A stretch of DNA of 64,000 nt from a virus (taxonomy: Duplodnaviria > Caudoviricetes), in the IMG/VR virus record IMGVR_UViG_2595698524_000001, positions 32,001 to 96,000 of that record. One strand, given 5' to 3'. Every line of letters begins with the position of its first letter. Position 1 is the stretch's first letter. The position numbers and the translations under genes were made by a program. The notes under the pieces were generated by a model that searched no databases, had not been told where the DNA came from, and saw only the letters and a list, made by a program, of their open reading frames with translations. Of this stretch, positions 28,029-56,204 are shown piece after piece.

Positions 28029-28579
28029 TGATGAAGAAGTCGCCTGCTTTCTACCTGTTCCATTCGTGGTACGGCTGGCGTGTGCCCGAGTATGCCACGC
28101 TTACCCGCTATGCTCGTGAAGAGCACGGGTTGTTTCTGCCAGAAGATCGCAACAAAGCGAAAGCAATTCTGCTGAACAAAAAGACGGTATTCTTAACCGT
28201 CGCGCAGGCGGCTGAGTACCTCAAGGATGGCGGGTCTTTAGATATCAACGACCCCGATAACGATGCGTTGCCGGTGTATCAGTTAATCATGGAACATCTG
28301 AACAACTGGTACATGTACCTGACACAACCCTCGTTGATTGTGCGTAAGGTGCCTATTGAGGGATTGCGTGAGTTTAATAAACTGGCGGGCGACCTCTTCC
28401 CGGTGGCCAACCGCAAAGGGTATTTCAAAAAGCCGGAAATCACCATGTCCATGCAGCTGGCGTCGTTCTTCGAAGACATTAAGCCGACGGCTCAACAGCA
28501 TCGCTTTAATGACCAGCTGATGTTGATGATTGAAAGCGCTTACCGCAAACGTGGGGGTGGTTATGTTCGCTCGGTTTAA
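28028..28579 (+). CDS. Conserved hypothetical protein
   Basis: Coupled in the structural operon. Confidence 0.7.
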   Translation: MMKKSPAFYLFHSWYGWRVPEYATLTRYAREEHGLFLPEDRNKAKAILLNKKTVFLTVAQAAEYLKDGGSLDINDPDNDALPVYQLIMEHLNNWYMYLTQPSLIVRKVPIEGLREFNKLAGDLFPVANRKGYFKKPEITMSMQLASFFEDIKPTAQQHRFNDQLMLMIESAYRKRGGGYVRSV

Positions 28580-29852
28580 AGCGATTGTAGGCAAACACAT
28601 CGCAAAAGCCGTCGGTAGTCCAAAGCTTACGTACACTGTGGTTTTGAAAGCAAACGGAATTGCGGTCAAAGCCATGAAAGTGCACTCCATTACCCGACGT
28701 TCGGAATTCGTTCGCACGATGGGTACCACCACGTTCATCACAATCCTTGTTCCAATGACGCAGTTGCGTCTGTTGCTGTCAAAGACCTACGGGAACCTGA
28801 CGTGTACGCTCGGCACGTTCTCGCAAGGCAAGCTGTTACGTCGTGAGGTGTTGTACGGTGTGGTTCAAAACGCACAAGACCTTGACATGACCGCGCCGAC
28901 AAAGAACATGGGTCTTGGTGATGAAATCGATTTCTCGGTGGTCACACTGGAGTTGATGAACGAGGCTATCTGGAAACTGCGATTGGTGCAGCAGGGTCTT
29001 AACGTGCAGCGTAACGACCCGTTAACGGTATGTCGATTTCTCTTAGCACGTACGACGAGGGCACAGGATGCACAGAAGGGCGAGACGGAAGGGTTACAGT
29101 ATGCTGAGGAGCCGCAGACGCCATATTCATCGATTGTGGTTCCTGACGGCACCCCATTCCGCGGTATCTTCGATTACCTCCAAAACCGATACGGTGTGTA
29201 TGCCCAAGGGTTGGGCGTGTTCAACTATGAAGATGTGTGGTTTCTCTTTAGACCGTGGAATAAAGCCCGGTTTCAGGAAGACGACTATCGGTTGGTTGTC
29301 TACGCTGTAGCGGCCGATGACATGGCACAGCCTGACCACACGTTCCGTATCGAAGGGAAGACGTATTACGTCGTTGTAGCGGGCGATAATCGCCTCGTCG
29401 ACCAGCGTGACCAGTCAGCCCTTAATGAGGGCACAGGATACCGTGTAGCCTCTGTGCGTGCGTTAGATGGCCGTACTATCGACCAGACCGAGAACGGGCC
29501 CACACAGACCGTCTCAGACGCGTTTGTAAGCACCGCTAACCCGTCACCGCATAACTCTGGGTTAACCAATGCTAACTTCGGCGAGAAACGCTTTGCAGAC
29601 AGCGATAAAGCGATACGTAGCGAGCTTGCTCGAAAAGCAGGTCGTTATCTGACCGTACGCTGGTCACACGCAATGTTTGGGGCAGTACGTCCGGGTATGG
29701 GTGTGCAGTACAACTATGCCAACGACGGTGGTATGTTCACCAAACACGGGACGGTTATTGGGGAAGTCTACCACACGGCATTAGACGGTGGGGGTGCTGC
29801 TGGCGAACAGTACGTTTCGTCATCAGACATCATGCTCTGGATTGCTGACTGA
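28563..29852 (+). CDS. Virion structural protein, possibly baseplate hub
   Basis: ATG 28563 after GGGGGTGG; FDYLQNRYGVY, VRPGM segments typical of hub proteins. Confidence 0.55.
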   Translation: MFARFKAIVGKHIAKAVGSPKLTYTVVLKANGIAVKAMKVHSITRRSEFVRTMGTTTFITILVPMTQLRLLLSKTYGNLTCTLGTFSQGKLLRREVLYGVVQNAQDLDMTAPTKNMGLGDEIDFSVVTLELMNEAIWKLRLVQQGLNVQRNDPLTVCRFLLARTTRAQDAQKGETEGLQYAEEPQTPYSSIVVPDGTPFRGIFDYLQNRYGVYAQGLGVFNYEDVWFLFRPWNKARFQEDDYRLVVYAVAADDMAQPDHTFRIEGKTYYVVVAGDNRLVDQRDQSALNEGTGYRVASVRALDGRTIDQTENGPTQTVSDAFVSTANPSPHNSGLTNANFGEKRFADSDKAIRSELARKAGRYLTVRWSHAMFGAVRPGMGVQYNYANDGGMFTKHGTVIGEVYHTALDGGGAAGEQYVSSSDIMLWIAD

Positions 29853-29880
29853 TTTTTTACAACTGAAAGATTAGATATAG
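29853..29880 (+). promoter_or_regulatory. Putative middle promoter driving a non-coding cassette
   Basis: TTTTTTACA-N14-TATAG. Confidence 0.6.
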
Positions 29881-30030
29881 GCAGCCAGGGGATACCTGAG
29901 TTGGGGAGGGGGTTTTTTAACGAGTGATGAGCGTAGCGAATCACGACTTCCTTATTCCTAAGTAATCCTCTCTAAGGATTACGCTCAGTAAGTGTGCTCT
30001 CCCTTCGGGGAGAGTCCTTATTTTTCTTTT
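29880..30030 (+). ncRNA. Structured non-coding cassette (candidate sRNA or replication-primer RNA/origin)
   Basis: Own promoter and terminator, three hairpins, G4AG5T6 tract, no credible ORF. Confidence 0.45.
29997..30030 (+). terminator. Intrinsic terminator
   Basis: CTCTCCC-TTCG-GGGAGAG then T-rich. Confidence 0.75.
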
Positions 30031-30084
30031 ACGTCATTTTCTAATCCTATGCTAACAAACACCTCTTTAACAAGGAATTATTCG

Positions 30085-30828
30085 ATGAACGAAATTATCC
30101 GTTACATGCTCTCCGCCGATGTCATTCTGAAGATTGACGAATACGAGAAAGCAACGTTCGGTAAAAAAGCCACCAAGCTCTGGGACCGTATCATCAAAGT
30201 CCTGCCGCACGGTGAGCAGATTGAAATTCTGGGTGTGCAGGCAACCAACCGCGATACCACCATTGCTATCCTCTATAAAGTCGATGGCGTGGAAGGCGGT
30301 AAAAACCTGCCTATCGCTGACGAAGGTTCACTGGGCAACCTGCTGTTCATGCACTGCGTAGCGTTTGCTACCCCGTACCAGATTTTGCATACGCTGTATA
30401 GCTTCGACTATATCTACGCGATTGCAAACATCATCTCGGGCCGTATTAAGCCGGGCGACTCCGACACTTATCCGCAATACGTTAAGCGTATCCGTCCGGA
30501 AGACTTCGACGACGAAGTTTCGCTGGATGTGTTCCGCTTTGAGCTGATTGGTGAAAACCGCACCGACGACTTCGTGACCTACCTGAAAGCGATCGTGCGC
30601 TACCATGCGCAGATGTCGACTGACGATATGTCCAACAACCACAACGAGCTGTATCCGGTTCTGATGTACGGTAACCGTGTAGCCTTCGGTACGTACATTC
30701 CGTTCCCAGCCCGTATCCTCGCACCGTACCACGACAGCACTATCCTGCCCGAGCCGGAAGAGCTGGGTCTGTTGTTCAGTGATGCGGTCAATGTGATTAG
30801 CGAACAGCGTCACCATCTGCAGCATTAA
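30085..30828 (+). CDS. Conserved hypothetical protein
   Basis: AAGGA SD before ATG 30085; TTTACG-N14-TATG promoter motif at 30028. Confidence 0.75.
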   Translation: MNEIIRYMLSADVILKIDEYEKATFGKKATKLWDRIIKVLPHGEQIEILGVQATNRDTTIAILYKVDGVEGGKNLPIADEGSLGNLLFMHCVAFATPYQILHTLYSFDYIYAIANIISGRIKPGDSDTYPQYVKRIRPEDFDDEVSLDVFRFELIGENRTDDFVTYLKAIVRYHAQMSTDDMSNNHNELYPVLMYGNRVAFGTYIPFPARILAPYHDSTILPEPEELGLLFSDAVNVISEQRHHLQH

Positions 30829-30840
30829 AAATAAAGCCGA

Positions 30841-30880
30841 CTACTACCCTTCGGGGTAGTAGCGGTTATTTTCTTTTTTT
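30841..30880 (+). terminator. Intrinsic terminator
   Basis: CTACTACCC-TTCG-GGGTAGTAG plus T-run. Confidence 0.8.
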
Positions 30881-30899
30881 CCTAACGAAAAATATTTCA

Positions 30900-30920
30900 G
30901 ATATATATTACTTTTGTGAA
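30900..30920 (+). promoter_or_regulatory. Early (vRNAP) promoter
   Basis: GATATATATTACTTTTGTGAA contains the phiKZ early consensus TATATTAC; near-identical copy at 56184. Confidence 0.75.
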
Positions 30921-30965
30921 CGAGATACATTATCTCTTAATCTAATACACTGTGGAGCTATTCAA

Positions 30966-31241
30966 ATGTCTATTATTCGTGTTCTGATTCATACCCTCGC
31001 TATTCTGGCTGTCGCTGTATTCTTCATCCTGTCTCCATTCGCAGTAATGGATTTGCTGGGTGGTCAAGAGAATGCAATCGTTGCTGGTTTAGGTGGCGCG
31101 CTTTACATCGTCACCGCTTTAGGTTTCCTCTTCAGCGATGCTTTAGAATTGAACTTCGGTCCATTCCGCTGGTACCGCAATCTCGTTGAAAAGAACCGTT
31201 ACGTGGCTCCAGTGTGGAACTACATCTTCGGCAACGAATAA
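30966..31241 (+). CDS. Small two-TM membrane protein
   Basis: Two hydrophobic helices; GGAG SD. Confidence 0.75.
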   Translation: MSIIRVLIHTLAILAVAVFFILSPFAVMDLLGGQENAIVAGLGGALYIVTALGFLFSDALELNFGPFRWYRNLVEKNRYVAPVWNYIFGNE

Positions 31242-31290
31242 CCCCAACTCTTAACTGACTCACAACAACTCATTTATAAGGAATACTATT

Positions 31291-31464
31291 ATGCGCAACG
31301 ACAACCTCGACGCCCTGCTGAAACTCTCTGGTAAAGAACTGGCTGCTGTAATGGCTCAGGTTAAAGCTGAAAAGGCAGCGGGTCAACGCCTGGCGTCTGT
31401 TAATCCGGTAAAGGCGTACCTGTCTACCGATTCCCATCCTAACCGTATCATCAATAAGGTGTAA
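31291..31464 (+). CDS. 57-aa protein (not in ORF track)
   Basis: TAAGGA SD; MRNDNLDALLKLSGKELAAVMAQVKAEKAAG...NKV*; optimal codons. Confidence 0.75.
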   Translation: MRNDNLDALLKLSGKELAAVMAQVKAEKAAGQRLASVNPVKAYLSTDSHPNRIINKV

Positions 31465-31466
31465 CC

Positions 31467-31916
31467 ATGTACGTACTGAATGACAAAGGCGCAGCACGCG
31501 TCGCTGAACTGAAAATTCTCTCCGGCGTTGAACTGACGCCGGTACATGGCAAACAAACCATCCAACGTGACGGAGGCATCTACCGTAAATTTAAATTGAC
31601 TAACCACGGACGGGTGCACTTCGTCGAACTGGAGCTTGATGAATACAGTCTGACACATCCGGCTGACATTCAACCAATCACGCTCGACGATGAAGAACCT
31701 ATCGTGTTCGAAACCATGCACAACTGTTCACGTGGTGCACGCTACAAAGTCGAGCTGTGTCGTGACGGCGGACGTGGGTTCATCAAAGTGAAAACACTGG
31801 CAGGCATCAACCCGAGCGATTTCAGCTTTGCCATTAACCACATCATCCAAGACCTGTTAACGAGCGCTGCTCAAAACATGCGGATGAAAATTAACTCTTT
31901 CCCTCAAATTTCTTAA
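31467..31916 (+). CDS. Hypothetical early protein
   Basis: TAAGGT SD, in operon. Confidence 0.75.
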   Translation: MYVLNDKGAARVAELKILSGVELTPVHGKQTIQRDGGIYRKFKLTNHGRVHFVELELDEYSLTHPADIQPITLDDEEPIVFETMHNCSRGARYKVELCRDGGRGFIKVKTLAGINPSDFSFAINHIIQDLLTSAAQNMRMKINSFPQIS

Positions 31917-56158: not shown

Positions 56159-56183
56159 CATTTTGCGAACGAAAATAATCTCA

Positions 56184-56204
56184 GATATATATTACTTTAG
56201 TGAA
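56184..56204 (+). promoter_or_regulatory. Early (vRNAP) promoter
   Basis: GATATATATTACTTTAGTGAA, 20/21 identical to 30900. Confidence 0.75.

Follow-up and report, generated by a model that had tools for sequence, protein, structure and literature searches.

A conserved promoter-to-terminator element, present in two copies, is a candidate gene for a small structured RNA in a jumbo phage related to Derbicusvirus

Introduction

Jumbo phages that encode their own RNA polymerases are mined for biology and therapy, and to our knowledge very few of their non-coding RNAs have been described and none of their replication origins defined. In phage 201phi2-1, according to passages of one report, transcription start sites closely followed by terminators mark 11 small RNAs (sRNAs), one of which is conserved among phiKZ-like phages (PMC11512511). 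Here we analyse an intergenic element located at positions 29853–30084 of a 64,000-nt stretch of phage DNA (the window; bases 32,001–96,000 of the 223,989-bp virus record IMGVR_UViG_2595698524_000001, which is judged 99% complete), together with a second copy elsewhere in the same genome; we refer to the two as copy A and copy B. An earlier note, made from the sequence alone, had described copy A as a promoter-driven non-coding cassette resembling an R-loop-primed replication origin. We lean, with modest confidence, towards reading this gap as a gene in its own right whose product is a small structured RNA, with copies A and B as paralogs in an uncatalogued family.

The element resembles 201phi2-1 sRNA005 and the phiKZ sRNA upstream of gp182, as excerpts of the same report present them (PMC11512511), in being found in a phage with its own multisubunit polymerase, in forming a promoter-to-terminator unit of less than 250 nt, in lying before a gene, and in being conserved, with a conserved fold, among related phages. 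It differs from these sRNAs in occurring as two paralogs per genome, with a purine tract, a hairpin tip and a pyrimidine tract that are invariant; in addition, the 201phi2-1 sRNAs described there were sequenced as RNA, whereas the element here is predicted from sequence. Unlike the phiKZ sRNA, it is not upstream of a gp182-type tail gene: a neighbour check showed that the genes beside copies A and B, a 247-codon and a 364-codon open reading frame (ORF), respectively, are not of that type. In the phiKZ-type phage KTN4, neither the sequence nor the covariance model gave a significant match (best model E = 0.026, at an ordinary terminator). The element is absent from Rfam (four matches with E <= 10 were returned for 29000–31000, none inside 29853–30084 and none near the gathering score), and what is new among promoter-to-terminator phage RNAs is a family with a paralog, copy B, and an invariant core. 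Literature searches by sequence string returned only primers or unrelated papers, and a search on jumbo-phage sRNAs, supplementary tables excepted, turned up other RNAs and not this one.

Results

Judged by its sequence matches, the source phage is related to the Derbicusvirus phages Phobos, EarlPhillipIV, Derbicus and pEa_SNUABM_38. At the megablast level, Erwinia phage Phobos was the only match (77.0% identity) to a 1.1-kb query that included the element, and a more sensitive search with a 256-nt query of the gap added the other three; seven records had at least 80% query cover and all were Derbicusvirus. The phage genome contains an RNA polymerase beta-like ORF (PF00562, 25.9 bits) and no match to the beta-prime N-terminal family PF04997. 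Because of the PF00562 ORF, we regard the source (224 kb) as one of the jumbo phages that carry genes for multisubunit RNA polymerases of their own. The gap of ~230 nt, which separates the end of a virion-structural gene (29852) from the ATG of the 247-codon gene, has a G+C content of 41% and carries no annotation in any of the four named relatives. When public sequencing runs were compared with window positions 28500–31500, close relatives (about two thirds or more of sampled words) appeared in 14 DNA runs, which include small isolate-sized assemblies as well as food, gut and wastewater metagenomes; one RNA-library run contains a 224,364-nt contig of a relative ~4% different from the source phage.

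Every feature that the earlier note had listed is present in the sequence, its position exact or shifted by one or two bases (Table 1), and the description of the locus as a promoter-driven non-coding cassette holds up well: the promoter motif is enriched, the hairpins covary, a terminator closes the unit, and the arrangement is kept in all four named relatives. The accompanying statement that the locus has no ORF is correct for conserved ORFs and needs amending otherwise. Specifically, a 12-codon ORF (ATG at 29927 to TAA at 29965) is present, with the ATG replaced by ACG in three of the five aligned phages. We rejected a leader peptide encoded by this ORF, as the ATG is lost in the EarlPhillipIV group and the differences are compensatory hairpin changes. 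On the minus strand, a mechanically called 58-aa ORF (29768–29944) is annotated in none of the four relatives.

Table 1. Positions of the predicted features of copy A, its downstream surroundings and copy B (window coordinates unless stated otherwise).
Feature	Position	Strand	Description
Promoter	29853–29880	+	TTTTTTAC at 29853–29860, 15-nt spacer, TATA at 29876–29879, then G at 29880
Hairpin P1 (5′)	29882–29903	+	CAGCCAGG/CCTG-A-GTTG, loop GGATA, 8 pairs
Purine tract and U-run	29903–29920	+	GGGGAGGGGG at 29903–29912, T6 at 29913–29918, then AA
Hairpin P2	29924–29944	+	Stem GTGAT/ATCAC around tip GAGCGTAGCGA (GA-GC-GTA-GC-GA)
Pyrimidine tract	29948–29959	+	TTCCTTATTCCT, anti-Shine-Dalgarno-like, complementary to the purine tract through G.U pairs
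Hairpin P3	29962–29982	+	GTAATCCT/AGGATTAC, 8 pairs
Intrinsic terminator	29996–30025	+	GCTCTCCC-TTCG-GGGAGAGT, tail CCTTATTTTT; from terminator scan
Second promoter (of downstream gene, outside the element)	30027–30051	+	TTTTAC at 30027–32, N15, TATG at 30048–51
Leader of 247-codon gene	to 30087	+	AAGGAA at 30072–77, ATG at 30085
Paralog B	genome 154,545–154,680, outside the window		Promoter motif, 5′ hairpin, GGGGAGAGGGGG, CUUUUAA, tip, UCCUUAUUCUU; same order of parts as A

The promoter motif is overrepresented in this genome. In its loose form (TTTAC-N14-16-TATR) it occurs 26 times, compared with 9.8 +/- 3.2 (maximum 17) in 50 block shuffles, and the strict TTTTAC form has 19 genome copies, 16 of them on the + strand. 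Most of the other copies lie 20–60 nt upstream of a ribosome-binding site and start codon. In the gap, all five phages have the two boxes in unchanged or almost unchanged form, and the spacer varies; the scan that yielded the terminator found no sigma-70-type promoter on the + strand of the gap. In phiKZ, as passages of PMC7598289 describe them, late promoters have the form T-3 A T G+1 and middle promoters an AT-rich block centred at -24, and the layout here is alike, with the T-rich box at about -26 to -19 relative to the R of TATR. By analogy with that layout, we consider TTTTTTAC-N15-TATR to be a putative promoter for the phage non-virion polymerase. In copy A the promoter adjoins the stop codon of the upstream virion gene (29850–29852) and predicts a start at ~29879. 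Separately, the genome contains a second recurrent promoter-like motif, ...TTTCAGATATATATTAC(T/C)..GTGA, in four near-identical copies, all on the + strand (window 30890–30915 and 56175–56200; genome 154,701 and 223,930) and kept in the relatives at copy B; it is probably an early (virion polymerase) promoter class.

The gap is among the best-conserved stretches of its neighbourhood, with a mean column identity of 89% across five phages versus 77% for the coding flanks aligned to Phobos, the latter figure covering the 889 nt (~81%) of the 1.1-kb query that align. In the alignment of copy A, 95.7% of cells in the four helices are paired, versus 32–45% when the partners are slid by one to three columns, and six of the 31 pairs have changed on both sides, with compensatory changes in each of P1, P2 and P3. 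Column shuffles reached the observed values in 2 to 6 of 500 trials; only three distinct sequences underlie this covariation, and it is therefore suggestive rather than strong. P3 is paired in 100% of cells, with two of its eight pairs changed on both sides and, in the EarlPhillipIV group, a GUAA loop of the GNRA type. P1 has two of eight pairs changed on both sides and two on one side (87.5% of cells paired), and its G.U pairs exist on the + strand only; in P2, two of the five outer pairs have changed on both sides. The terminator stem shows no variation and is capped by UUCG or UCCG. Judging by the sequences, the GNRA and UNCG loops together with the strand-specific G.U pairs point to folding at the RNA level.

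Between these helices lie tracts that hardly vary. The earlier note had proposed looking at the conservation of the G-tract and the GNA-tipped hairpin in related phages, and this combination proved to be invariant in five of five A copies and four of four B copies. The purine tract of A, which looks like a strong Shine-Dalgarno sequence, is nearly invariant (one A has moved by one position in the EarlPhillipIV group), and the pyrimidine tract is invariant among A copies except for one T/C difference. The string GGGGAGGGG has just three positions in the genome, all on the + strand: two adjacent ones at ~13.2 kb and the one in copy A. The sequence ...CCUCCUUA... within the pyrimidine tract of EarlPhillipIV A and Phobos B is presumably that of the 16S rRNA 3′ end, which we treat as a lead only.

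As a whole, the predicted RNA of copy A has a folding energy of -53.3 kcal/mol (z = -2.34, a level reached by 3 of 200 shuffles), and its single-sequence minimum free energy structure pairs the purine tract with the pyrimidine tract. RNAalifold applied to A, B and L124 (a contig described below) gives the same purine–pyrimidine helix, with 11 pairs, many of them G.U, in which the U's tolerate A/G differences between A and B. Applied to four A copies alone, it pairs the purine tract instead with the 5′ arm of the terminator (eight pairs in all four copies, one G.U/G-C change).

Copy B repeats the core. The 11-mer tip GAGCGTAGCGA occurs exactly twice per genome in the source phage, Phobos and EarlPhillipIV, and the two sites share the promoter, the 5′ hairpin, GGGGAG(A)GGGGG, the U-run, the invariant GAGCGUAGCGA tip and UCCUURUUC, with UCCUURUUCYU of the pyrimidine tract common to both; the purine tract of B is that of A plus one extra A. 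About 55 nt of the B core are invariant in four of four phages. In the helices counted for B (the 5′ hairpin P1 and two tip pairs), all 36 cells are paired and two of nine pairs have changed on both sides, and across A and B the slid-partner controls give 32–56% of cells paired. The loops of the B 5′ hairpin are again GNRA, GAGA or GAAA. The left neighbour of B is a divergent structural gene, and B therefore cannot be a 3′-untranslated region (3′-UTR). The tails of the two copies are unlike each other: in B the purine tract pairs with GCCUUCCUCC plus U6 to give a terminator-like hairpin, a segment that is deleted in Phobos, and the fold of the whole is no better than that of shuffles, so A and B share a core module and not their tails. 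A conserved TATATATTAC-type motif, with four copies in the genome and probably representing the early promoter class, follows B.

In the source genome a covariance model detects just two strong copies, A and B (75.4 and 71.4 bits), the outcome being the same for Phobos and EarlPhillipIV, and within IMG/VR an invariant 19-mer finds only the Phobos and Derbicus copies. A G-tract-to-tip pattern also matched L124, a 104,780-bp contig (30% G+C, ~38% complete) that carries a PF00562 ORF. Beyond the pattern itself, a hairpin directly precedes the G-tract of this site and TTT follows the tract, the tip is enclosed by a UUUAA/UUAAA stem, TATAG lies ~25 nt upstream, and the site is intergenic between divergent genes; the tip GAGCGTAGCGA is invariant across A, B and L124. 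Its high model score is not counted as evidence because L124 is in the seed alignment. From these sequence features, L124, in an AT-rich unrelated jumbo phage, is a probable distant relative of the element. Elsewhere, two Pseudomonas jumbo phages, Psa21 (112,309–112,385; L158) and KTN4 (173,699–173,741; L159), have a C-tract/G-tract terminator followed by the common motif TATCGCATTAA; in Psa21 a hairpin and UUCCUUUGUUCUUAAU then precede a ribosome-binding site, a weak and loose likeness to copy B that was read by eye.

A model for a small structured RNA

The locus thus combines a promoter motif, covarying folds, conservation, paralogy and a lack of coding. In the model we favour, the phage multisubunit RNA polymerase would transcribe an RNA of ~145 nt (from ~29879 to ~30025) from the TTTTTTAC-N15-TATR promoter and would stop at the intrinsic terminator. 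P1 would act as a protective hairpin at the 5′ end of the RNA. In the core, the purine tract GGGGAGGGGG would pair, through G-C, A-U and G.U pairs, with the pyrimidine tract UCCUUAUUCCU, and the resulting helix would enclose a loop rich in U and a highly stable hairpin tipped by GAGCGUAGCGA, with P3 and the hairpin of the terminator making up the rest of the molecule. In the likeliest modes of action, the invariant tracts, which can be single-stranded, would base-pair with mRNAs at their ribosome-binding regions or would titrate a factor that binds RNA. We infer that the RNA is made and that it acts as RNA. This would make the element a candidate RNA regulator, possibly aimed at ribosome-binding sites, and, less likely, a primer or origin module; either role, if true, would give these phages one more named element in a regulatory repertoire about which little is known.

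Several observations weigh against this model. RNA-library contigs cover the element in three of four runs and show neither ends nor strand: one run (X15) has no contig over 29848–30062, the contigs of two others (X17 and X19) stop or start at 29904–29943, and run X16 gave a single 224,364-nt contig equal to the whole genome, without transcript ends. Consisting entirely of contigs, the RNA-library data say nothing on whether the element is expressed, where a transcript ends or which strand it comes from. Conservation of the core takes the form of sequence identity and not of covariation, which fits a DNA or protein-binding site equally well, and tips of the GCGNAGC type are hyperstable mini-hairpins as DNA. 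The identical 11-mer lies downstream of the ColE1 origin. A search of the phage genome for extended complements of the two tracts or of the tip found none; the one near match (10 of 11) is a ribosome-binding region on the minus strand, at genome position 144,062. Taken whole, copy B folds at the level of shuffled sequences (z = -0.06; 89 of 200 shuffles as good), and the covariance model found nothing significant in any of five other jumbo phages that encode an RNA polymerase (SPN3US, KTN4, Psa21, Ea35-70 and AR9; best E = 0.024).

Alternative explanations

The earlier note's idea of a transcript-primed origin, in which a G-rich RNA stays hybridised (possibly as a hybrid quadruplex), ends or is cut near the U-run and primes the leading strand, and the GAGCGTAGCGA hairpin, extruded from the displaced + strand, is where a helicase or primosome loads, has several points in common with the locus, and yet we consider it unlikely; the same grade applies to the wider claim that the core is a replication-priming module of RNA-polymerase-encoding jumbo phages whose hairpin loads the phage helicase. 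If it were true, this phage group would gain its first defined origins in the copies at 61.9 and 154.6 kb and perhaps also in the GnAGn site at 13.2 kb, which lies beside an AT-rich island. In both copies a promoter lies directly upstream and reads into a G-rich non-template tract, and the non-template G-run followed by a homopolymer run is invariant. Mitochondrial CSB II likewise has a GnAGn tract and then a U-run after a promoter, although the polymerase there is single-subunit and here multisubunit; phage T4 oriF/oriG have a middle-type promoter as an origin component, with a T4-like unwinding element that the element here does not contain. The statement that the 11-mer occurs in ColE1 is correct: NC_001371 contains GAGCGTAGCGA once, at 1332–1342 (0.03 expected; 5 of 200 shuffles), ~135 nt to the right of the G-rich stretch GGGGGGCGGAGCC...AAAAA (G6CGGAG...A5), to the left of rop and in the same sense as the rightward primer. 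ColE1 and the phage element are thus alike in having a promoter-driven RNA, a G-rich stretch, a homopolymer run and GAGCGTAGCGA downstream on the RNA-sense strand, and passages of PMC3167613, which give no sequence for it, state that extension of the ColE1 primer exposes the primosome assembly signal ssiA (n′-pas). The two differ in that the phage 11-mer follows its G-tract by 16 nt and the ColE1 11-mer its G-rich/A5 stretch by ~135 nt, in that ColE1 lacks the pyrimidine tract, P3 and the terminator, and in that a replication function has been shown for ColE1. We take the ColE1 11-mer to lie inside ssiA/n′-pas; however, the 11-mer tip is common in bacterial hairpin repeats, and its sharing with ColE1 may reflect hairpin stability and not function. 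Other points fit an origin as well: the copies are 93 kb apart, B lies at a minus/plus gene divergence and a local minimum of cumulative GC skew, a 130-bp island of very high A+T content comes after the third GnAGn site, at genome 13.2 kb, and in Phobos a helicase gene lies ~3 kb downstream of A. Against this, no AT-rich unwinding element follows the G-tract of A (the next 200 nt are 39% G+C (39–40%), like the gap), a strong terminator closes the unit, the two G-runs are too few for an intramolecular quadruplex, and the covarying P1 and P3, the GNRA and UNCG loops and the invariant pyrimidine tract are left unexplained. If replication takes place inside a protein shell, as in phiKZ-type kin, host PriA may not reach the site. 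The inflection of GC skew that the earlier note had named as a check showed nothing separable from gene orientation: cumulative skew rises over most of the genome and dips after ~62 kb and at 130–154 kb (ending at B), where minus-strand genes lie, so that the dips cannot be separated from a transcription effect, and there is no origin-like switch at A. Of the origin proposal, then, the promoter, the invariant G-tract and tip and the occurrence of the 11-mer in ColE1 hold; the sequence shows neither an AT-rich unwinding element nor a replication signal.

The remaining readings place the function in cis, in the upstream mRNA or in the DNA. A cis-acting leader could be an attenuator, in which the purine tract competes with the 3′ arm of the terminator for its CUCUCCC arm, or could direct put-like processive antitermination into the downstream genes. 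The eight-pair helix between the purine tract and the terminator 5′ arm in four of four A copies, with its G.U/G-C change, argues for it, as do the pyrimidine tract as a third pairing partner and the order promoter, structured RNA, terminator and genes in two copies per genome. The layout recalls HK022, where putL and putR are two similar promoter-proximal structured RNAs per phage that precede terminators; HK022 put, however, acts on host RNA polymerase, and here separate promoters follow the terminators. Specifically, a conserved second promoter, its boxes kept in five of five phages, directly follows the terminator of A, and a conserved TATATATTAC early-type promoter follows B, so read-through is not needed for the downstream genes; moreover, the logic of B differs (purine tract with GCCUUCCUCC and a U6 hairpin, deleted in Phobos), the alternative pairing is not among what A and B share, and we regard such a leader as rather unlikely. 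A passive role, in which the gap is the 3′ end of the upstream virion-gene operon, the hairpins and the terminator only stabilise and terminate late mRNA and the promoter is incidental, seems very unlikely to us. It accords with the position of the terminator, which is the first after the upstream stop codon, with the recurrence of the pyrimidine motif UCCUUAUU in the terminator tail, and with two RNA-library contigs that run from the upstream gene into the element (29757–29931 and 29676–29943), contigs being no proof of a transcript. Yet B has the same promoter and core with no co-directional upstream gene, its neighbour being divergent; the promoter boxes are invariant and the spacer varies; conservation exceeds that of the coding flanks; and plain terminators need no 11-nt invariant tip common to paralogs. 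Finally, P2 might act as single-stranded DNA, as a hairpin of the repetitive extragenic palindrome (REP) or Ssn-target kind recognised by a nuclease or other DNA-binding protein. Passages of two reports describe REPs tagged with CGTC/TGTC (PMC3733652) and NTS/SRM hairpins, which Ssn GIY-YIG nucleases cut in the form of single-stranded DNA (PMC11893778), and the phage hairpin is like hairpins of this kind in its GAGCG-N-AGCGA tip, followed in some copies by ATCCTTRTTC. The tip followed by TCCTTRTTC was found in 61 metagenome and 32 bacterial-genome stretches; a [CT]GTC tag is present in 24 of these 93 and a stem that directly adjoins the 11-mer in 25 of 93, features that recall the tagged REPs and the NTS hairpins, and some of the stretches form long palindromes or tandem arrays. 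The totals of 61 and 32 are near rough chance estimates of ~23 (metagenome) and ~20 (bacterial genomes), and the TCCTTRTTC likeness may therefore have been selected by the search pattern. The phage copies lack both the tag and the A-T first stem pairs (A, ...CGAG-TGAT...; B, ...ACACG...), they number two and not hundreds, and the phage has no GIY-YIG gene (no PF01541 match; among the 93 loci, a crude pattern found one GIY-YIG-like ORF). The published SRM pattern fits none of the 93 bacterial matches and neither phage copy, its two matches in the genome comparing with 1.55 in shuffles. On the grounds of tag, copy number, missing GIY-YIG gene and SRM misfit we rejected membership of the Ssn/REP class, and a DNA-level hairpin of this general kind is in our view highly improbable.

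Surroundings of the element and side loci

The terminator of copy A (stem at 29996–30015 with eight pairs, five of them G-C, and a loop of four; T-rich tail to 30025) serves both the small unit and the upstream virion-gene operon. After the 247-codon gene, at window 30840–30863, lies a two-way terminator-like hairpin, CTACTACCC-TTCG-GGGTAGTAG, which can be read on both strands.

We also asked how far a "G-tract plus GAGCGNAGCGA hairpin" extends among phages, and rejected a widespread module of this description. In IMG/VR, patterns of a G-tract followed by GAGCGNAGCGA matched 42 stretches (35 distinct strings), and the same pattern read backwards, used as a control, matched 36 stretches (28 distinct); as the control comes near the real count, the total is at chance level and we make no claim of a widespread module. 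The one excess is below 40% G+C, with five distinct real strings, two of them mutually homologous, versus none in the control; L124, with its additional features, is one of the five. The high-GC matches, which include perfect-stem hairpins in a microvirus Rep gene (L132), are not evidence. A scan of the collection with a 14-mer pattern was too unspecific, with at least 109 chance stretches.

Several other loci carry comparable parts. Outside the window, at genome 13,080–13,392 (L119, 1581–1893), a 311-nt gap between convergent genes contains a terminator and two adjacent GnAGn tracts, GGGGGAGGGG followed by GGGGGAGGGGG; a strongly AT-rich island (~130 bp) in which GATC occurs several times lies in the same gap and is delimited by a second terminator. 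Its G-tracts are kept in EarlPhillipIV, and this G-tract beside an AT-rich stretch looks more origin-like than the element does. Two homologous small phages (L133, 7250–7520; L271, 1700–1900) have, by eye, four G-runs and GAGCG(T/A)AGCGA, after which come TTCC-N-ACAAG boxes repeated in direct and inverted orientation, a TATAAT box and a stretch rich in A+T. In a contig of 43% G+C (L279, 6230–6480), three tandem 38-nt repeats just upstream of a putative terminase large subunit gene are followed by a G-tract and a GAGCGAAGCGA motif, which could be a packaging or an origin region. Among bacteria, a widespread hairpin repeat (L167–L259) consists of TGTCAT, a 3–5-bp arm, GAGCGTAGCGA, the complementary arm and ATCC, often in long palindromes or tandem arrays; eight loci of this repeat and of a separate multi-copy cyanobacterial element gave no Rfam match and no fit to the SRM pattern. 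The cyanobacterial element ends in the same 11-mer, GAGCGTAGCGA.

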